Of a stretch of 64,000 bases of DNA, positions 53,835-64,000 are shown in pieces. Source of the DNA: an uncultured delta proteobacterium (GTDB lineage Bacteria > Desulfobacterota > Syntrophorhabdia > Syntrophorhabdales > WCHB1-27); assembly GCA_963810935.1 (NCBI GenBank), contig CAWEPK010000016.1:64001-128000 (forward strand). The letters are read 5' to 3'. The notes under the pieces are model-generated. The model made no database searches. It saw only the letters and a program-made list of their open reading frames with translations, and was not told where the DNA came from. The number at the start of each line of letters is the position of its first letter. Within the stretch, counting starts at the first letter, position 1. Position numbers and translations under genes: made by a program.

Positions 53835-55595
53835 ATGGCGTACGATGCGACAAAAATGGCAGACTGGCAGATTTCCGAGGCTGCTGAAGGGAAAATGAAG
53901 TCGATCTGGCAGTTGGGCGACGAAATGGGGCTCAAGAAAGAGGAGATCCAGCCCTACGGCCGGATAGGTAAGGTCGATTTCATGAAAGTCATCGAACGGC
54001 TGAAGGACAAGCCGGACGGCAAGTACATAGAAGTCACGGCCATTACTCCGACCCCCCTGGGCGAAGGGAAGACGACCGTTTCTATGGGCCTTGTCGAGGG
54101 TATGGGCAAGAGGGGCTGGAACGTAGGCGGCGCCATCCGTCAGCCTTCGGGCGGCCCGACGATGAACGTCAAGGGAAGCGCGGCCGGCGGCGGCAACGCG
54201 CAGGCAATCCCTCTGACTGAGTTTTCTCTCGGCCTCACAGGCGACATAAACAACATTATGAACGCCCACAACCTCGCCATGGTCGCGATGACGTCGCGCA
54301 TGCAGCACGAGAGGAATTACTCGGACGCCGAGCTCGCGAAGAGGAAGCTGAAGAGACTCGATATCGACCCGAAGAACATCCAGATGGGCTGGATCATGGA
54401 CTTCTGCGCCCAGTCGCTCAGGAACATCGTGATCGGCCTGGGCGGCAAGATGGACGGCTACCTCATGCAGTCCCGCTTCGACATAGCGGTCAGCTCCGAG
54501 GTTATGGCGATACTCGCAATCATCCGGGACCTTGCGGACCTCCGCGAAAGACTCGGCAAGATAACCGTCGCATATGACAGGACCGGCAAGCCGGTAACCT
54601 GTAACGACCTCGAAGTGGCCGGCGCCATGACCGCCTTTATGAGGGAGAGCGTCAACCCGACGATCCTCCAGTCCGTCGAGGGGCAGCCTGTCCTCGTCCA
54701 TGCCGGCCCGTTCGCGAACATCGCAGTCGGCCAGTCCTCCATCATAGCCGACCGTGTGGCACTCAAGCTCTTCGATTATAACGTTACGGAGAGTGGGTTC
54801 GCCGCAGACATCGGGTTCGAGAAGTTCTGGAACGTCAAGTCGAGGATCAGCGGCCTGAAACCCAACGTATCGGTCCTCACGACCACGATCCGCGCCCTCA
54901 AGATGCACGGCGGCGGACCGAGGGTTGCCCCGGGCCTCCCGCTGCCCGAAGAGTACAAGAAGGAAAACCTGGGACTCCTCGAAAAAGGCGCGGCCAACAT
55001 GGTCCACCACATAAAGACCATCAAGCAGTCGGGGATGAAGCCCGTCGTCTGCATCAACTGGTTCCACACGGACACGAAGGACGAGATCGCCATGCTGCGG
55101 AAGATCGCTGAAGCCGAAGGCGCCCGCGTGGCCTTATCGACCCACTGGCTGAACGGTGGCGACGGCGCACTCGAGCTTGCCGACGCAGTCCATGACGCGT
55201 GCGAAGAAAAGTCGGATTTCAAGTTCCTTTATCCCCTCGAAATGCCTCTCCGCCAGAGGGTCGAAATGGTGGCGAAGAACGTTTACGGCGCGGACGGCGT
55301 CTCCTGGTCGCCCGAGGCGGAAGCCAAAGCCAAGGCCTTCGAGGCAGACCCCGAAAAGAGAGACTACTACACGATGATGGTCAAGACGCACCTGAGTCTC
55401 TCCCACGACCCGAACCTGAAGGGCGTGCCGAAGGGCTGGGTGCTGCCGGTGAGGGACGTCCTTATCTTCTCCGGCGCCAAGTTCCTCTGCCCCGTGACCG
55501 GCGCGATCAGCCTCATGCCCGGCACGAGCTCCGACCCCGCGTTCAGAAGGATCGACGTGGACGTCAAGACGGGCAAAGTAACGGGTATGTTCTAA
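53835..55595 (+). CDS. fhs: Formate--tetrahydrofolate ligase
   Basis: [52 protein letters not shown]. Confidence 0.97.
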
Positions 55596-55701: not shown

Positions 55702-56469
55702 ATGGCAAGAGTGGCGGCGCCTGAGATTTTCGCCTTTGCCGGCAAAGGGGGGGTGGGCAAGACTACCGTCAGCGGCATGCTTATTCGCTACCTGGTGGAA
55801 AGGCGCAAGGACGGCCCCGTGCTCGCCGTGGACGCCGACCCCAACGCTAACCTGAACGAGGTCCTTGGCATACGCTCATACGCTACGATAGGTGAAGCGC
55901 GGGAGATGATGAAAGAGGCTGTGCCTTCCGGCATGACCAAAGAAACCTGGATGGAGCTGAAGGTGCATGAGTCCCTTGTCGAAAGCCGGGGGTTCGACCT
56001 CCTGGTGATGGGAAGGCCCGAAGGACAGGGTTGTTACTGCGCGGCCAACACGCTGGTCAAAAAGCACATCGATATCCTCAAAGACAACTATTTTTACATA
56101 GTGGTGGACAATGAGGCGGGCATGGAGCACATGAGCAGGCTCGTTACCCAGGACGTGGACCACCTGTTCGTAATCTCCGATGCGACTTCAAGGGGCCTTT
56201 TGACCGCCCGTAGGATACTGGAGCTTGCGGGGGAGCTCGATCTGCGGATCGGCTGTAAGCACACAATAGTCAATCGAGTGGGGCCGGGGCACGAGGGGCT
56301 GGCCCGGTTGGCCGCAGAAAGGGGCGTTGAGGTGAACGGCATCATCCGCGACGACCCGTCGCTTTTTGCCATGGATGCGGAGGGCGGCAACGTGTTCTCG
56401 ATAGAGAACGGCGTGGCCCTTCACGACGCTTACGATGTTTTTGAAAAAATCCTGAAGGGAAAGGAGTAA
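55702..56469 (+). CDS. cooC: CooC/AcsF-type nickel-insertion ATPase
   Basis: AGKGGVGKTT, DADPNANL, MGRPEGQGCYC, DNEAGMEH. Confidence 0.92.
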   Translation: MARVAAPEIFAFAGKGGVGKTTVSGMLIRYLVERRKDGPVLAVDADPNANLNEVLGIRSYATIGEAREMMKEAVPSGMTKETWMELKVHESLVESRGFDLLVMGRPEGQGCYCAANTLVKKHIDILKDNYFYIVVDNEAGMEHMSRLVTQDVDHLFVISDATSRGLLTARRILELAGELDLRIGCKHTIVNRVGPGHEGLARLAAERGVEVNGIIRDDPSLFAMDAEGGNVFSIENGVALHDAYDVFEKILKGKE

Positions 56470-56471
56470 AC

Positions 56472-57359
56472 ATGGCTGCAACTATTATAAGCGGAACCGC
56501 CGTAGCGGCTCAGATAAGGGAAGAGATCAAGAAAGACGTGGATGAGCTCAAGGCGAAGCATAACCTGACTCCAGGGCTTGTCACCATCCTTGTCGGGGAA
56601 AACCCTGCCTCGGTGAGCTATGTCACTGCGAAGCAGAAGACATCGCACGACCTCGGCTTCTATTCGATACAGGACAACCAGCCCGGGGACATCACCGAAG
56701 AGGCGCTCCTGGCCCTTATCGACAGGTACAACAAGGACCCTAAAATTCATGGTATACTTGTTCAGCTTCCCCTGCCGAAGCACGTGAATGAGACGAAAGT
56801 GCTGTACGCCATCGACCCGGATAAGGACGTCGATGCGTTTCATCCCGTCAATGTCGGCAAGCTCGTTATAGGGGAGGCCAATTATTATCCGTGCACTCCG
56901 TACGGTATCCAGCAGCTCCTGGTGAGGAGCGGAGTCAAGACGGACGGCGCGGAGGTTGTTGTCGTGGGCAGGAGCAACATCGTCGGCAAGCCAATCGCCA
57001 ACATGCTTCTCCAGAAGGCAAAAGGGGCCAATGCGACGGTCACCATTTGCCACACGGCGACGAAGGACATGGCCTTCCATACGAAACGGGCGGACATACT
57101 GATAGTCGCCGCGGGCAGGCCGAAGGCGATCACGGGCGACATGGTGAAGGAAGGAGTAGTGGTTATAGACGTAGGCGTCAACCGCATCGGCATGACGCCG
57201 GAAGGCAAGGCGAAGCTGGCCGGAGACGTGGATTTCGAGTCGGTTAAAGAGAAAGCTTCCTTCATCACACCGGTCCCCGGAGGCGTGGGCCCCATGACCA
57301 TCACCATGCTCATGCTTAACACAGTCAAGGCTGCGAAGCTTTTTGGGGGAATAAAGTAA
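56472..57359 (+). CDS. folD: Methylene-THF dehydrogenase/cyclohydrolase
   Basis: GILVQLPLP, KDVDAFHP, PCTP, GRSNIVGKP, TPVPGGVGPMT. Confidence 0.97.
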   Translation: MAATIISGTAVAAQIREEIKKDVDELKAKHNLTPGLVTILVGENPASVSYVTAKQKTSHDLGFYSIQDNQPGDITEEALLALIDRYNKDPKIHGILVQLPLPKHVNETKVLYAIDPDKDVDAFHPVNVGKLVIGEANYYPCTPYGIQQLLVRSGVKTDGAEVVVVGRSNIVGKPIANMLLQKAKGANATVTICHTATKDMAFHTKRADILIVAAGRPKAITGDMVKEGVVVIDVGVNRIGMTPEGKAKLAGDVDFESVKEKASFITPVPGGVGPMTITMLMLNTVKAAKLFGGIK

Positions 57360-57793: not shown

Positions 57794-58735
57794 ATGGCTT
57801 TAACGATACCTACGATCAGCTACACAGGTAAGATCAAGGAAGTGACATTAGGCAGCGGCACCTCTTCCGTTACTCTCGGAGGAGAGGCATGTTACCCCTT
57901 CTATACCTTCGAGGGGGCCATGCCCCGTGCGCCCCAGATAGCCTTTGAGGTATGGGACGCCAAGCCGGAAGACTGGCCGGAGTGGGCCGTAGAGCCGTAT
58001 AAAGACGTCATCTCCGACCCGGTTGCCTGGGCGAAGAAGGCAGTTGATGTCTACAAGGCTGAGATGGTCGCCCTGCTCCTCAAGAGCGCAGACCCGAACG
58101 GCGCGAACCGGGACGCCGAGGCCGTTGTTGCAACGGTCAAGGCGGTTGCGGACGCAGTTTCCGTTCCGCTCATCGTCTGGGGCTGCGCGAACGACGAGAA
58201 GGACGCAATCATGCTCCGGCGCGTAGCGGAGGTCTGCGAAGGCAAGAACCTCGCCATCGGCCCCGTGACCGATAAAAACTACAAACAGATAGGGGCCATG
58301 GCCATTGGCTACAACCACGTGGTTATCGCATCCACGCCTATCGACGTCAACCTGGCGAAGCAGCTTAACATCCTCCTCGGCAACCTTGGTGTGCAGGATA
58401 ACCGGCTCCTGATCGACCCGACGACAGGCGGCCTGGGCTACGGCCTCGAATATTCCTATTCGGTGATGGAGCGCGACCGTATGGCCGCCCTCACCCAGGA
58501 AGACGTGAAGCTCCAGACGCCCATCATCTGCAACCTCGGGAACGAGGTATGGAAGACGAAAGAGGCCAAAACCAGGACAGAAGATAATCCCAAGCTCGGC
58601 GACGCGAAGAAAAGGGCCGTCCTTATGGAGTCGGTCGCTGCGATGACGCTCGCCATGGCGGGCGCGGACCTGCTTATCATGAGACACCCTGAATCCATCG
58701 CCTATGCGAGACAGATGTTCAAGGAATTAACGTAA
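57794..58735 (+). CDS. acsD: Corrinoid Fe-S protein small subunit (CODH/ACS delta)
   Basis: GGEACYPFYTFEG, DPVAWAKK, PIDVNLAKQLN, DPTTGGLGYGLEYSYSVMER, MRHP. Confidence 0.95.
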   Translation: MALTIPTISYTGKIKEVTLGSGTSSVTLGGEACYPFYTFEGAMPRAPQIAFEVWDAKPEDWPEWAVEPYKDVISDPVAWAKKAVDVYKAEMVALLLKSADPNGANRDAEAVVATVKAVADAVSVPLIVWGCANDEKDAIMLRRVAEVCEGKNLAIGPVTDKNYKQIGAMAIGYNHVVIASTPIDVNLAKQLNILLGNLGVQDNRLLIDPTTGGLGYGLEYSYSVMERDRMAALTQEDVKLQTPIICNLGNEVWKTKEAKTRTEDNPKLGDAKKRAVLMESVAAMTLAMAGADLLIMRHPESIAYARQMFKELT

Positions 58736-58745
58736 GGGGGAAACC

Positions 58746-60692
58746 ATGTCGGAAGAAAAGATACGGAGTATAGATAAAGCGACAATCGAGCTTCTGGACA
58801 AGGCGGAAAGAGAGAAGATCTCAACCGCCTTCTTCCGGGCTGAAGATTTGAAGCCCTGTCCCATAGGCGTGGAAGAGAGCTGCTGCAAGATATGCGCGAT
58901 GGGACCGTGCAGGATGCCCAAGCCGAAGAAAGACGACGGAAAGAAGAGAATGGGCGTCTGCGGCGCCACCATCGAGACCGTAGTCGCCAGAAACTTCGCG
59001 CGTAAAGTGGCCGGCGGCTGTGCAGCCCACTCCGACCACGCCCGCGAGGTCGTAGAGACCTTCATCAAGGCGGCCAAGGGCGAGGCCCAGGGCTTCCAGA
59101 TCAAGGATGAAATGAAGCTCCAGGAAGTCGCCCTCGATTTCGGCGTGCCGACCGAGGGTAGGGAGCCGAACGATATCGCCCTGGAAATAGGCGAGAAGGC
59201 CCTTTCGGAGTTCGGCAGGCAGCACGGTGAGGCCGTATACGTCAAGAAGGCCCCCCTCAAGAGACAGGATATCTGGCGGAAGCAAGGCGTAGTCCCCAGG
59301 GGCATCGACCGGGAAGTGGTCGAAGTGATGCACAGGACGCATATGGGCGTGGACCAGGACTACAGGCACATTATGCAGCAGGCCACGCGCTGCGCGCTGG
59401 CGGACGGCTGGTCGGGCTCCATGATCTCGACTGACCTCCAGGACATCATGTTCGGCACGCCTGTGCCGGTAGTGGGCACCTTCAACCTGGGTGTCCTGAA
59501 GGAAGACCAGGTCAACGTCATCATCCACGGACATGAGCCGCTCCTTCCGGAGCTTATGGTTGTCGCGTCCCGCGACCCGGAGATCAAGAAAGAAGTGGAA
59601 AAGGTCGGCGCGAAGGGCATCAACCTTGCCGGCATGTGCTGCTCGGCCAACGAGGTGCTGATGCGTCACGGCGTGCCTGTCGCAGGCAACTTCCTTCAGC
59701 AGGAGCTGGCGCTCGTAACGGGCGCAGTCGAGCTGATGTCGGTCGATGTCCAGTGCGAGATGCAGGGTCTGGCCGACGTCGCCCAGTGCTTCCACACAAA
59801 GCTGATTACGACGTCCGACAGGGCGAAGATGGAAGGCGCCGAGCACTATGAGTTCACCCCGGAGACGGGTCTCGACACTGCAAAGAAGCTGCTGAAGCTC
59901 GCCATAGCCAATTACCCGAACCGGCGTCACAACGTTACGATACCGCAGTATTCGGCGGACGGTGTCGTCGGCTTCTCCCACGAGACGATCAACTACCTGC
60001 TGGGCGGCCTCTTCCGCGCGAGCTACAAGCCGCTCAACGACAACATAATCAACGGCCGCATCAGGGGAGTGGCGGGCGTCGTCGGGTGCAACAACCCGAG
60101 GACCCCTCACGACCAGGGCCATATAGAGATGGTTAAGGAGCTCCTGAAGAACGACGTTGTCGTCCTCACGACGGGCTGCTCCGCAATGGCCTGCGGAAAG
60201 GCCGGCCTGCTCACGCACGAAGCCTCAAAGAAATACTGCGGTCCGGGTCTGGCTGAAGTCTGCGAGACGGTAGGCATACCGCCGGTCCTCCATATGGGCT
60301 CTTGCGTAGACAACTCACGCATCCTGATCGCCGCTACGGCGCTTGTCAAGGAAGGGGGCCTCGGCGATGACATTTCCGACCTGCCTGCGGCGGGCGCGGC
60401 GCCAGAGTGGATGAGCGAGAAGGCCATATCGATCGGCCAGTACTTCGTCGCCTCCGGCGTCTACACGGTCTTTGGCGCCACTTTCCCCAGCTTCGGCAGC
60501 GAGATATTCACGAAGCACCTCTTCGAGGAGCACGAGGACCTGTATAAAGGCATGTGGGCCTTCGAGGTGGACCCGGTAAAGGCCGCCCGTATGATGATCG
60601 CCCATATCGATAAGAAGAGGAAGGCGCTCGGCCTCGACAAGGGCAAAGAGAGGGTGCTGTTCGATATGGCCATGCGCAGGGCCATCGAGTAA
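58746..60692 (+). CDS. cooS: Anaerobic Ni-CO dehydrogenase catalytic subunit (AcsA/CooS)
   Basis: CPIG....CCKICAMGPC, AAHSDH, HGHEP, GMCCSANE, DVQC, GCNNP, TGC, GSCVDNSR, EWMSEKA. Confidence 0.96.
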   Translation: MSEEKIRSIDKATIELLDKAEREKISTAFFRAEDLKPCPIGVEESCCKICAMGPCRMPKPKKDDGKKRMGVCGATIETVVARNFARKVAGGCAAHSDHAREVVETFIKAAKGEAQGFQIKDEMKLQEVALDFGVPTEGREPNDIALEIGEKALSEFGRQHGEAVYVKKAPLKRQDIWRKQGVVPRGIDREVVEVMHRTHMGVDQDYRHIMQQATRCALADGWSGSMISTDLQDIMFGTPVPVVGTFNLGVLKEDQVNVIIHGHEPLLPELMVVASRDPEIKKEVEKVGAKGINLAGMCCSANEVLMRHGVPVAGNFLQQELALVTGAVELMSVDVQCEMQGLADVAQCFHTKLITTSDRAKMEGAEHYEFTPETGLDTAKKLLKLAIANYPNRRHNVTIPQYSADGVVGFSHETINYLLGGLFRASYKPLNDNIINGRIRGVAGVVGCNNPRTPHDQGHIEMVKELLKNDVVVLTTGCSAMACGKAGLLTHEASKKYCGPGLAEVCETVGIPPVLHMGSCVDNSRILIAATALVKEGGLGDDISDLPAAGAAPEWMSEKAISIGQYFVASGVYTVFGATFPSFGSEIFTKHLFEEHEDLYKGMWAFEVDPVKAARMMIAHIDKKRKALGLDKGKERVLFDMAMRRAIE

Positions 60693-60739: not shown

Positions 60740-62944
60740 ATGTCAAAGATCATTTGTTCTGCGGCCATAAGAGGGGCGCAGAAGATATTCGATAGGGGCG
60801 AGGCCACGTACAAGGCCACCCTCGCAAAATACGGGCCGGACCAGGAAATAGGCTTTCCCAACACCGCCTACTATCTCCCCATCATTTACTCCATGACCGG
60901 GATGCCGGTAGCCAAGCTGGGCGACATGAAGAAGGTCTTCGATCTCTGCAGGAAGCTCATCCCGGCGCCTGTCAGGGAAACGAACCCTCTGCCTTACCTC
61001 GCCCCCACCCTCGACGCGGGCATGGCAACGTTCTTCGTCGAAGAGATGGTTGAGGCGATCAAGTATCTGGAGACCCCGAACCTTTACGTCAACGGGGAGG
61101 ACCCGATTGATGGGAACATCTGGCTGGGAGCGGCCTCGGACCTCATCTTCAGGAAGAGGGGCGTCGAGTTCGTGGACGGCACCGCGCCTGGCTTCGCAGC
61201 CATCGTGGGCGCTGCGCCCGATTCCCAGACAGCCGCGAAGATCGCGCTGGAGCTCCAGGAGAAGAACCTCTATGTCTTCATGGCGGCGGAAAACAACGGC
61301 AAGAGGTTCGCGGAGCAGCTCGTAGAGGCGGGCGTGCAGATCGGCTGGCCGACGCGGCTGGTCTCCTTCGGCCCGGACATCCACCAGGCCGTATTCGCAA
61401 TCGGCTTCGCGTGCCGCGTTGCAATGGCCTTCGGCGGCATCAAGCCGGGAGACTTCAGAAAGGTCCTCATATACAATAAGGACAGGACATACGCCTTCGT
61501 CATGGCCCTTGGGGACGTGACTGACGAATGGTACGCCAATGCGGCCGGCTGCCTTAACTGGGGCTTTCCGACCATCGCGGACACGCCGATCCCCGAGGCG
61601 CTGCCGACGGGCATCTGCACGTACGAGCACGTCGTCTCGAATATCCCGCATGCGAACATCGTGGAAAAGGCGGTCGAGGTCAGGGGCCTTAAGGTGCAGG
61701 TCACGAAGGTCCCTATCTCCGTCTCCTACGGCCCCGCCTTCGAGGGCGAGCGCGTGCGCGGCGAGGACATCTATCTGGAAGTTGGCGGCGGCAAGACGGT
61801 CGCCGTCGAGTGGACCACTTCAGCCAACATGGAGGACGTTGAAGACGGCCGCGTACAGGTTTTCGGGCCGGAGCTTAAAGACATCACCCCCGGCACGCGC
61901 CTCCACTTCGCCATGGTCGCGGAGGTGGCGGGCAGGAACTTCCAGGAGGATTTCGAGCCGATCCTGGAGAGGCAGAACCACCACCTCATCAATCAGGCCC
62001 AGGGCATCATGCACATAGGTCAGCGCGATATCGCCTGGATCCGCATATCCAAGCAGGCGGTCGAGAAGGGCTTTACGCTGGCCGACATCGGAAAGATCAT
62101 CCATGCCAAGTACCATCAGGACTTTGGCGCGATATTCGACAAGGTCCAGGTGAAGATCTACACGGAAGAGGCGAAGGTCCAGGAAGTGCTCGCGAAGGCG
62201 CGCGCCTCGTACAAGCACAGGGATGACCGCGTCGAGAACATGACCGACGAGACGACGGACACCTTTTACTCCTGCACGCTCTGCCAGTCCTTCGCGCCGA
62301 ACCACGTCTGCGTGGTCGCACCGGAGAGGACGGGTCTGTGCGGGGCTTACAACTGGCTCGACTGCAAAGCCTCCTACGAGATCAACCCTGAGGGGCCGAA
62401 CCAGCCTATAGCCAAGGGCGAGGTACTCGACGCCAGGTACGGCCAATTCAAGGGCGCGAACGACTTCGTCTTCAAGGCATCGAGACAGAAGGTCTCCAAC
62501 GTAAGCTTTTACAGCCTCATGGTCGATCCTATGACGACCTGCGGCTGCTGCGAGTGCATCGCAGCCGTTCTCCCCATGGCGAACGGCATTATGACGGTCG
62601 ACCGCGACTATACAGGGATGACCCCGTGCGGCATGAAGTTCACTACACTTGCCGGCTCCGCGGGCGGCGGCGCGCAGGCGCCGGGCTTCCTGGGACACAG
62701 CAAGTACAACGTCACGCAGAGGAAGTTCCTTAAAGGCGACGGCGGCCTCCTGCGGCTCGTGTGGATGCCCAAGAAGCTGAAAGAAGACCTGCGCGAGCGG
62801 CTGCAGAAGCGCGCGGAAGAGCTGGGCGTGCCCGATCTGCTCGACAGGATCGCTGACGAGACGGTAGCGACGACGGAAGAGGAAGTCATCGCATACTGCA
62901 CTGAGAAGGGGCATCCGGCGCTGACAATGGAATCGATTATGTAG
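60740..62944 (+). CDS. acsB: Acetyl-CoA synthase (CODH/ACS beta)
   Basis: FPNTAYYLP, VDGTAPG, CTLCQSFAPNHVC, PMTTCGC. Confidence 0.97.
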   Translation: MSKIICSAAIRGAQKIFDRGEATYKATLAKYGPDQEIGFPNTAYYLPIIYSMTGMPVAKLGDMKKVFDLCRKLIPAPVRETNPLPYLAPTLDAGMATFFVEEMVEAIKYLETPNLYVNGEDPIDGNIWLGAASDLIFRKRGVEFVDGTAPGFAAIVGAAPDSQTAAKIALELQEKNLYVFMAAENNGKRFAEQLVEAGVQIGWPTRLVSFGPDIHQAVFAIGFACRVAMAFGGIKPGDFRKVLIYNKDRTYAFVMALGDVTDEWYANAAGCLNWGFPTIADTPIPEALPTGICTYEHVVSNIPHANIVEKAVEVRGLKVQVTKVPISVSYGPAFEGERVRGEDIYLEVGGGKTVAVEWTTSANMEDVEDGRVQVFGPELKDITPGTRLHFAMVAEVAGRNFQEDFEPILERQNHHLINQAQGIMHIGQRDIAWIRISKQAVEKGFTLADIGKIIHAKYHQDFGAIFDKVQVKIYTEEAKVQEVLAKARASYKHRDDRVENMTDETTDTFYSCTLCQSFAPNHVCVVAPERTGLCGAYNWLDCKASYEINPEGPNQPIAKGEVLDARYGQFKGANDFVFKASRQKVSNVSFYSLMVDPMTTCGCCECIAAVLPMANGIMTVDRDYTGMTPCGMKFTTLAGSAGGGAQAPGFLGHSKYNVTQRKFLKGDGGLLRLVWMPKKLKEDLRERLQKRAEELGVPDLLDRIADETVATTEEEVIAYCTEKGHPALTMESIM

Positions 62945-62955
62945 AAAGGGCAAGG

Positions 62956-63110
62956 CTGCCAGGCAGCGCGTACGCGCTTTAATAGGGAAGATGGTGTAAT
63001 TCCATCACGGACCCGCCGCTGTAAGGGGGGACGATGGCGCAAGATCCACTGGGTAATCCCGGGAAGGTGCGCCGGAGGATGATCCCCGAGTCAGAAGACC
63101 CGCCTGGCAG
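62956..63110 (+). ncRNA. Cobalamin riboswitch
   Basis: P1 CTGCCAGGC/GCCTGGCAG; AATAGGGAA.GATGGTGTAATTCCATC, CCCGCCGCTGTAA, CCACTG...GGGAAGG, and B12 box AGTCAGAAGACC.GCC. Confidence 0.92.
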
Positions 63111-63168
63111 TTCTTACAGACACCCTCCTCGAGGCCTGGGAGAGGAAGCTTAAAAAAAGGAGACTGCT

Positions 63169-64000
63169 ATGGGACTCACAGGTATCCAGATATTCAAGCT
63201 TCTTCCCAAGACCAACTGCGGGGAATGCGGTTACCCCACCTGCCTTGCCTTTGCCATGGCGCTCGCTGCCGGCAAGGCCGAGCTGGAAAAATGCCCGACC
63301 CTCCCGGATGCGGCTAAAGAGCAGCTTGGAGAGGCGAGCGCGCCCCCCATCAGGCAACTCACGATAGGGACGGGCGAATACGCAGTGAAGGTCGGCGGAG
63401 AGACGGTCATGTTCCGCCATGAGAAGACCTTCTTTAATAAGCCCGGTCTGGCCGTCCTTATTACCGACGGGATGGACGACGCGGAAGTGGCCCGCAAACT
63501 CGGTAAAATGGCCGAGCTGCAGTACGAGCGCGTCGGCCTCAACCTGAGGCCGGAGCTGGTTGCCGTTAAAGAAGCAGGCAACAAGACCCGCTTCCTGGAA
63601 ATCGTGAAAAAAGTGGCGGCGACGCCATACAGCATTATCCTTATGTCTTTCGACCCGGCCGCCATGAAAGAGGCGCTCGATATCGCCAAGGACAAAAAGC
63701 CGCTCATTTACGCAGCCACCAAGGACAACACGGACGCGATGGGCGCCTTGGCGAAAGAGTACGCCTGCCCCCTGGCAGTCAAGGGTGAGGGCCTGGAGGC
63801 TCTGGCCGCCCTGTCCGAGAAGCTCATCGGTATGGGCGTCAAGGACCTGATTCTCGACTCCGGCACCAGGACCGTGAAGGAAGCCTTCTCCGACCAGATC
63901 ATGATGAGGAGGGCCGCGCTCCAGTCGCGCTTCAAACCCTTGGGCTTCCCGACTATCGCTCTGCCCTGCGAGATGACGGACGACGTAATGAAAGAGACGC
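63169..64000 (+). CDS. acsC: Corrinoid Fe-S protein large subunit (CODH/ACS gamma), runs off the window; absent from the ORF track
   Basis: MGLTGIQIFKLLPKTNCGECGYPTCLAFAMALAAGKAELEKCP...GGETVMFRHEKTF; RBS AGGAG. Confidence 0.95.
   Translation, partial: MGLTGIQIFKLLPKTNCGECGYPTCLAFAMALAAGKAELEKCPTLPDAAKEQLGEASAPPIRQLTIGTGEYAVKVGGETVMFRHEKTFFNKPGLAVLITDGMDDAEVARKLGKMAELQYERVGLNLRPELVAVKEAGNKTRFLEIVKKVAATPYSIILMSFDPAAMKEALDIAKDKKPLIYAATKDNTDAMGALAKEYACPLAVKGEGLEALAALSEKLIGMGVKDLILDSGTRTVKEAFSDQIMMRRAALQSRFKPLGFPTIALPCEMTDDVMKET

Follow-up and report, generated by a model that had tools for sequence, protein, structure and literature searches.

The 64,000-nt stretch analyzed here (C16:64001–128000, called the window throughout) belongs to a 4.06-Mb genome assembly of 21 contigs that is 93% complete, and it carries a cobalamin riboswitch between two genes of a Wood–Ljungdahl operon, acsB and acsC. 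The upstream gene, acsB (60740–62944, + strand), encodes the alpha/beta subunit of acetyl-CoA synthase (NF040764, 1069.8 bits; Pfam ACS_CODH_B_C, CdhC and CODH_A_N). The downstream gene, acsC (63169–64000, + strand, continuing past the end of the window), encodes the large subunit of the corrinoid/Fe-S protein (CFeSP; Pfam FeS and CdhD); its full product of 444 aa scores 635.7 bits against NF003195, and the part inside the window 359 bits. When the whole window was searched with cmscan against Rfam 15, the Cobalamin family RF00174 gave the sole match above the gathering threshold, at 62944–63121 (+), with 117.8 bits (E = 6.6e-29) against a gathering cut-off of 31.5 bits. The model was matched untruncated over its entire length (1–189 of 189), and the P6 extension, which is a mark of class I, is present. 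The 5′ end of the aptamer coincides with the final nucleotide of the acsB stop codon and its 3′ end lies 47 nt ahead of the acsC ATG, the 224-nt gap between the two genes being filled by the riboswitch, followed by the acsC Shine–Dalgarno (SD) sequence and the ATG. The B12 box and the core (GGGAA, CCACUG, GAAGG and a AGCCAGAAGACC-like 3′ junction) match the consensus and are invariant in the 20 distinct leaders compared below. By its score and core features, the element is a genuine, complete class-I cobalamin riboswitch, predicted to bind a corrinoid. The initial annotation had already recognized a complete B12 element in this gap, as the full-length match bears out; the extent that it had given, 62956–63171, runs to the acsC start and begins 12 nt inside the aptamer.

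What kind of expression platform follows the aptamer? We found no terminator-like or sigma-70-like sites on the + strand between 62500 and 63400, in agreement with the earlier observation that a U-tract terminator is lacking. A terminator as the shut-off structure, of the kind that distinguishes the cobT riboswitch of Alkalihalobacillus halodurans, is thus missing, and the platform ends in the SD and the ATG. All of its parts lie on the + strand. In the Rfam alignment, the 5′ strand of P1, AAGGCUGCCAGGC, occupies 62952–62964, and the L5 loop ACCCG, the kissing-loop partner within the aptamer, occupies 63011–63015. The P1 3′ strand, GCCUGGCAGUUCUU (63102–63115), is a candidate second anti-SD, as RNAduplex finds it complementary to the stretch from the SD to the AUG. 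It is followed by CUCCU (63125–63129), the predicted 5′ strand of P13 and at the same time an anti-SD; by the predicted L13 loop, CGAGGCCU (63130–63137), whose motif CGNGG is predicted to kiss the CCCG of L5 with the N bulged; by GGGAG (63138–63142), the predicted P13 3′ strand, which resembles an SD; and by the acsC SD region, AAGGAGAC (63157–63164), 6 nt before the ATG. CUCCU has two possible partners, GGGAG and the SD core AGGAG (63158–63162). This choice had been pointed out before: CCTCCTC (63124–63130), GGGAGAGG (63138–63145) and AGGAG (63158–63162) all lie where the initial annotation placed them, and the C-rich strand is indeed able to pair with GGGAG or the SD, the register CCTCCTC:GGGAGAGG being confined to the closest relatives of the window.

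These parts were compared across 20 distinct leaders (alignment A3; a second alignment, A2, has 13 rows), with positions 63125–63142 numbered 25–42 for short. Common to all 20 leaders are an L5 of the form RCCCG, a hairpin made of YUCCY (63125–63129), a loop and RGGAG (63138–63142; AGGAG in L181), the SD AAGGAGA and the ATG, so that the anti-SD, the SD look-alike and the SD singled out earlier are all maintained. The pairing of CUCCY with RGGAG is kept in every leader, pair 25–42 being C-G in 16, C.A in three and U.G in one, and pair 29–38 being U.G in 13, C-G in six and U-A in one. The loop reads CGNGG in 19 of the 20 leaders (N = A in 12, C in six, G in one) and CGGAG in one; C30, G31 and G34 are invariant; the linker on the 5′ side of the hairpin varies freely, as does the sequence from the hairpin to the SD. 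In all 20 leaders, the loop is able to pair with the CCCG of L5 through four base pairs and one bulged base. An alternative kissing partner, the contiguous YGGG at 63137–63140, is present in 19 of them. At the start of acsC (63169–63174 of the window, compared in A3), the second codon is GGA (Gly) in most leaders and GCA (Ala) in L009, L089, L010 and L030.

Which of the two candidates does L5 kiss? The published L5 consensus is UCCCG, the L5–L13 kiss is described as stabilizing P13, and a bulged kissing loop has precedents in env8HyCbl and A. halodurans cobT (PMC10653944). We compared 19 distinct riboswitch platforms of the window's GTDB family that do not precede acsC. In 14 of them, a hairpin of 4 bp or more presents CGNGG in its loop, mostly as UUUCC-[CGNGGA]-GGAAA with C, A or U as the N; the other five belong to the R2/R4 type and read CUU-[GG(A/C)GA(A/G)A]-AGG. 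By analogy, CGNGG with a variable middle base is the usual L13 of this lineage. In L181, which belongs to the window's genus, the platform is CUCCU-CGAGGCUA-AGGAG, where P13 is kept (U.G replaced by U-A) and the loop is kept, and where YGGG is gone. Furthermore, a fifth kissing pair, between nucleotide 1 of L5 and the base after the GG of the loop, is possible in 15 of the 20 leaders (AU in eight, GU in six, GC in one), and the equivalent fifth pair for YGGG is impossible in all 20. The loops of the paralogues, the L181 platform, the fifth kissing pair and the invariant loop bases, which are otherwise unexplained, together suggest that the hairpin CUCCU:GGGAG is P13/L13 and that its loop is the partner of the L5 CCCG. 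Two other candidates were set aside. An apparent co-variation between nucleotide 1 of L5 and position 29 (A with U, G with C) in 13 leaders is broken by L180 (G with U), and no geometry fits it. A UGGGA that overlaps the acsC start of the window is an unlikely kissing partner, since it is not conserved.

Could the riboswitch turn acsC on? With the local hairpin taken as P13/L13, the anti-SD becomes the 5′ strand of P13, and ligand binding should free the SD. On balance, we think it rather likely that the element is a translational ON switch for acsC, the gene of the corrinoid-carrying CFeSP subunit, a reading that draws on sequence comparison, folding models and analogy. Ligand binding would close P1, and L5 (ACCCG) would kiss CGAGG in the loop of P13/L13, the hairpin formed by CUCCU and GGGAG. 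The kiss would lock the P13 5′ strand CUCCU, which is complementary to AGGAG, and the closed P1 would lock its own 3′ strand GCAGUUCUU, which in leaders of the short type (see below) is complementary to AAGGAGACUGC. With both strands tied up, the SD and the AUG would be free and AcsC would be made. Without a corrinoid, the strands would be released, the SD would be sequestered and apo-AcsC would not be made. Masking in this ligand-free state would fall to the P13 5′ strand everywhere, assisted by an extended helix in the long type (six of seven leaders) or by the P1 3′ strand in the short type. The upstream genes acsD, acsA and acsB would not be gated. The sole CFeSP large subunit of the genome would be translated when a corrinoid is available, and the same ligand would shut off cbiM and cobU through switches of the terminator type.

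A canonical translational OFF switch would use the same strands differently. In such a switch, the CCCG of L5 would kiss Y37-G38-G39-G40 and free CUCCU for the SD; P13 would be the anti-SD:SD helix, its loop would contain GGG, the role of ligand-free anti-sequestor would fall to the local hairpin, and corrinoid would lower AcsC synthesis. The unconstrained fold of the window between 63100 and 63185 does place GGGAG in a 5-nt loop atop a CUCCU:AGGAG helix, the SD-sequestering hairpin of L092 has a loop containing CGG, and, to our knowledge, all known translational cobalamin riboswitches repress. On the other hand, L181 lacks YGGG and yet retains P13 and the loop CGAGG, the invariant C30, G31 and G34 and the CGNGG hairpin loops of the paralogues are left without explanation, and so is a complementarity between the P1 3′ strand and the SD that is described below. 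Repressing the sole corrinoid-binding subunit of CFeSP when corrinoid is plentiful would also have no evident logic. We regard a repressing switch as unlikely, and the folding of the long-type leaders bears on it further.

Long-type leaders make up seven of the 20, namely those of genus g4 and of metagenome relatives. In six of them (the exception being L090, which has a shorter UUGGG:CCCAA instead), the SD is sequestered by an extended helix, UCUCCU-CG-AGGUUG(G):(C)CAAUCU-GAA-AGGAGA. This helix uses up the loop as well as G38-G39 and therefore excludes either kissing candidate while it exists, so that a YGGG kiss is incompatible with it in six of the 20 leaders. P13 and the anti-SD:SD helix are mutually exclusive, as they share columns 200–204 of A2. 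In the long type, the SD-sequestered ensemble is 5.4–8.9 kcal/mol more stable than the P13 ensemble, with an anti-SD:SD probability of about 1.00, and the SD accessibility rises from 0.01–0.12 in the unconstrained fold to 0.35–0.90 when P13 and L13 are fixed. In these models, the long-type leaders behave as ON switches, and further repression is hardly possible: the six leaders and L090 (7/20) already have their SD sequestered without any ligand term, which would leave an OFF switch nothing to repress. In the g4 leaders, the conserved hairpin is also set further from the SD, by an additional 75–115 nt that fold into two or three very stable hairpins. Across the platforms L011, L012, L027, L124, L179 and L090, such hairpin modules appear to have been gained, lost or duplicated between species, L179 having four of them.

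The short-type leaders, 13 of the 20 and including that of the window, offer a different candidate for masking the SD. In the window, the P1 3′ strand and the linker are complementary to the sequence that runs from the SD through the spacer to the first base of the ATG, forming 11 bp with 63157–63169 at −11.8 kcal/mol by RNAduplex. Such duplexes were judged against shuffled sequences by the share of shuffles that reach at least as low an energy. This share is 3% of 300 shuffles for the window, 0–1% for L010 and L185 (−15.5 kcal/mol), 4–8% for L009 and L089 (−8.8 kcal/mol), 6% for L180 (−9.8 kcal/mol) and 8% for L008 (−11.1 kcal/mol). The long-type leaders showed no complementarity of this kind. 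The complementarity can be explained by the outer P1 5′ strand, AAGGCUG (62952–62958), which resembles the SD region AAGGAGACUG (63157–63166). By withdrawing the 3′ strand, a ligand-stabilized P1 would likewise be predicted to turn acsC on.

Several observations weigh against an activating switch. The linear order anti-SD...GGG...SD is also the canonical OFF layout, with a contiguous YGGG in 19 of the 20 leaders that pairs with CCCG in 13/13 rows of A2, and it fits the logic of btuB and env8HyCbl, in which a kiss-stabilized P13 promotes a hairpin at the ribosome-binding site (RBS; PMC10653944). The CGNGG loops of the paralogues are called L13 solely by analogy. P13 with the loop as the kissing partner and anti-SD:SD with YGGG as the partner are each paired in 97.4% of cells across the 13 rows of A2. 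In neither structure set does any pair change on both sides, and every shuffle equals the observed count; covariation was dropped as a discriminator between ON and OFF, since the counts for the two sets are identical. In the window, the SD-sequestered ensemble is 0.7–1.0 kcal/mol less stable than the P13 ensemble, and the SD accessibility is 0.55–0.60 in the free fold compared with 0.57–0.64 with P13 fixed. Over the whole short type, the ensemble difference ranges from −2.9 to +4.6 kcal/mol, and nearest-neighbor folding shows no clear switch in these 13 of the 20 leaders; the sequestered state is the more stable one in only 12 of the 20. The lack of a clear OFF state in the folding models is the main weakness of the activating reading as far as the window itself is concerned. 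As for the P1 3′ strand, its complementarity to the SD is no better than in most shuffles in L168, L030 and L197, the SD and spacer AAGGAGACUG also occur in relatives without a riboswitch, such as L015, and the models give P1 a much greater stability than the duplex between its 3′ strand and the SD, so that P1 wins even without ligand. The P1 lock is hypothetical and would need a destabilized apo aptamer, which lies beyond nearest-neighbor models. Two further computations were uninformative: plain folds of 63100–63185 and 62940–63190 gave z-scores of 0.08 and −1.10, and forcing YGGG to be unpaired changed the SD accessibility inconsistently across 10 leaders. The activating switch conjectured by the initial annotation is favored by comparative anatomy (the L13 motif, L181, the extended helix and the P1 3′ strand/SD complementarity), and it gains nothing from the pair counts or from the folding of the window.

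Could the aptamer act mainly on the mRNA rather than on initiation? Rho-dependent polarity, processing or a change in stability between acsB and acsC would then set the ratio of upstream to downstream products, with either sign. The element is intercistronic in a long operon, and in relatives without it acsB abuts acsC with about 10–20 nt between them. The short-type folds lack strong SD sequestration in either state, and the long-type leaders have two or three additional stable hairpins ahead of the SD, after the conserved hairpin. However, the + strand between 62500 and 63400 shows no terminator-like site, and the conserved parts of the platform, namely an anti-SD, an SD look-alike and an SD, point to control of initiation. 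We consider an effect exerted mainly on the mRNA quite improbable.

How widespread is the arrangement? We examined 160 AcsC loci, consisting of the 80 closest from species genomes and 80 from metagenomes, with about 460 further relatives per collection lying outside this sample. An aptamer stands directly 5′ of acsC in 9/80 species-genome loci (motif screen of all 80; Rfam search of 18, with nine matches) and in 5/80 metagenome loci (Rfam search of 12). A sequence-only nhmmer profile built from 17 aptamers recovered exactly the same 14 carriers among the 160 loci and no others. By their record titles, the species-genome loci belong to Syntrophorhabdales, Syntrophorhabdaceae and other metagenome-assembled genomes of Thermodesulfobacteriota. 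The RF00174 scores of the 14 carriers are 104–128 bits, and their gene order is acsA-acsB-riboswitch-acsC-acsE-hdrC, with acsB upstream in 13/13 loci examined and the outer genes present wherever the locus reaches that far.

Within the window's GTDB family (Syntrophorhabdales-like), 22 species genomes hold 77 RF00174 matches, and the acsC-linked element is found in 18 of the 22, always at the same place (genus g1 4/4, g2 7/7, g4 6/6, g5 1/1). The three g3 genomes have acsC without the riboswitch, acsB abutting acsC in two of them, and the single g6 genome (84% complete) yielded no acsC. In a quick AcsC tree with SH-aLRT supports (55 rows, without the frameshifted L027, L035 and L043), all 12 carriers on the tree fall inside one 17-row clade, and two state changes are needed. 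The aptamer columns are invariant down to 75% AcsC identity, while the linkers vary. Two metagenome loci are natural deletion variants that capture loss in progress. In L087 (640–716), the aptamer is lost and CCUCCUCGAGGUCGGGAG and the SD are kept; its new 5′ flank lengthens the local hairpin, and the SD is free when the leader is folded without constraints. In L088 (1447–1503), both the aptamer and the hairpin are lost. Given the same-place conservation, the distribution within one clade and these losses, the sequences indicate that the element is old, maintained and occasionally lost.

Losses of this kind might also be expected of a decaying or neutral insertion without a regulatory role, as L087 has only the platform hairpin, L088 has neither part and genus g3 lacks the element altogether. 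Against this stand the scores of 104–128 bits in every carrier scanned with Rfam, the invariance of the aptamer columns to 75% AcsC identity and the presence of the element in 18/22 species genomes. We find a neutral insertion very hard to credit.

Upstream of acsB, the window encodes fhs (53835–55595), a cooC-like ATPase (55702–56469), folD (56472–57359), acsD (57794–58735) and acsA, the carbon monoxide dehydrogenase (CODH) gene (58746–60692), all assigned with NCBIfam and Pfam models. On the 3′ side of the riboswitch follow, in order, acsC, acsE, hdrC-like and hdrB-like genes, a gene for a 1469-aa fused HdrA-like/NAD(P) oxidoreductase, metV and metF, and beyond metF lie an ADP-forming acetyl-CoA synthetase with a GNAT domain and a second hdrCBA set. 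The initial annotation had allowed for the switch serving B12 transport genes downstream or for a second acsC. The genes downstream of the riboswitch include neither a B12 transporter nor cobamide genes, and the genome has one acsC only.

The only other AcsC-like match in the genome, at C7:333869–334237 (+), lies in an open frame of 357 aa and has 33% identity to the C-terminal corrinoid domain. Its product may be an HgcA-like mercury-methylation corrinoid protein, as HgcA-type NCBIfam models match the same region of AcsC. The 1469-aa fused protein (L006:5253–9662, equal to C16:131253–135662) combines an NAD(P) domain like that of the glutamate synthase small subunit with HdrA-like domains. 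Its gene sits between the hdrCB-like genes and metV/metF, and the protein is probably the electron-transfer partner of the methylene-tetrahydrofolate reductase.

The genome contains four further RF00174 matches, and after every one of them a G+C-rich hairpin with a U-tract was recognized by eye in the sequence. The genes that they precede are cbiM, cobU, a radical SAM gene, and a ferredoxin-like open reading frame (ORF) with an aldehyde:ferredoxin oxidoreductase gene (AOR). Of the genome's five cobalamin riboswitches, only that of acsC thus lacks a terminator. As CbiD and CbiC are encoded on C9, the organism is probably a producer of its own corrinoids. One of the terminator-type riboswitches (C8:771178–771379, +; locus L004) precedes a 98-aa Cys-rich ORF, which has no Pfam match and is ferredoxin-like by eye, and the aldehyde:ferredoxin oxidoreductase gene (AFOR_N, AFOR_C), which is without an obvious link to B12. 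A near-identical platform, R2 (C7:97805–98009), precedes the radical SAM gene, and this platform is common to the relatives L182, L188 and L193. A search for sequencing runs returned 19, of which 18 were DNA (four with at least half of the sampled words, two of these being possible sources of this DNA) and one was RNA (4% of the words). The DNA runs that hold window sequence are labelled as soil metagenomes.

The riboswitch is real and conserved and its place is unusual; its sign is probably unusual too. If the activating reading is correct, cofactor sensing can directly gate the synthesis of a cofactor-dependent enzyme, and the cofactor-binding AcsC would be made only when the cofactor is at hand, inside a Wood–Ljungdahl operon. 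It would explain how syntrophic Thermodesulfobacteriota match CFeSP synthesis to the corrinoid supply. It would also provide a small template from nature on which a translational device inducible by corrinoids could be modelled, with 20 sequence variants and two kinds of lock. The chances are roughly even that the element is the first corrinoid riboswitch from nature in which the ligand directly activates translation of a corrinoid-dependent enzyme, with a double lock formed by the P1 3′ and P13 5′ anti-SDs and with cobalt uptake and cobamide synthesis shut off by the same ligand. In the literature searched, which did not extend to supplementary tables (e.g., the Rfam list of the Eubacterium limosum paper, PMC5651825, where such a site might appear), no cobalamin riboswitch was reported ahead of acsC, CFeSP or acetyl-CoA synthase genes, and the only natural activating corrinoid riboswitch was a transcriptional one before a biosynthesis gene.

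How does the acsC element compare with known systems? In textbooks, cobalamin riboswitches figure as feedback repressors of the genes that supply B12. In Enterococcus faecalis, a B12 riboswitch controls a non-coding RNA of the eut system and makes the pathway B12-inducible. In Listeria monocytogenes, an antisense RNA under the control of a B12 riboswitch likewise makes the propanediol pathway B12-inducible (PMC11575231). Both systems share with the predicted acsC switch the logic that a B12-dependent function is fully expressed only with B12. They differ in that their effect is exerted in trans by an RNA that is antisense or sequesters, and in that the riboswitch itself terminates transcription, whereas the acsC element is proposed to act in cis on its own RBS. 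The adenine riboswitch of Vibrio vulnificus add is a translational ON switch, in which ligand-stabilized P1 withdraws a strand that masks the SD and the AUG. This parallels the complementarity between the P1 3′ strand and the SD in the short-type leaders, although add belongs to another aptamer class and has neither a kissing loop nor a P13.

Within the cobalamin family, E. coli btuB and env8HyCbl resemble the acsC element in aptamer family, in having no terminator and in the L5–L13 kiss and the control at the RBS that are predicted for it, and in them the kiss-stabilized P13 promotes the RBS hairpin and represses uptake genes (PMC10653944). In the acsC element, by contrast, the predicted P13 has the anti-SD as its 5′ strand, so that stabilizing P13 should free the SD, giving the opposite sign. 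The closest system in working principle is cobT of A. halodurans, which Procknow et al. (2023, mBio, PMC10653944) call the first known activating corrinoid riboswitch; for the acsC element, this sign is predicted. Both have an aptamer of the cobalamin family. In cobT there is a bulged L5–L13 kiss (with GCCCG as L5) and a kiss-stabilized P13 that is exclusive with the repressing structure (PMC10653944), and the same is predicted for the acsC element. The cobT switch is transcriptional, with P13 as the antiterminator (PMC10653944), whereas the acsC element has no terminator and the competing structure would be sequestration of the SD. Finally, the cobT riboswitch stands at the 5′ end of an mRNA, precedes a biosynthesis gene and responds best to cobinamide (PMC10653944), whereas the acsC element is intercistronic and precedes the gene of a corrinoid-dependent enzyme subunit.

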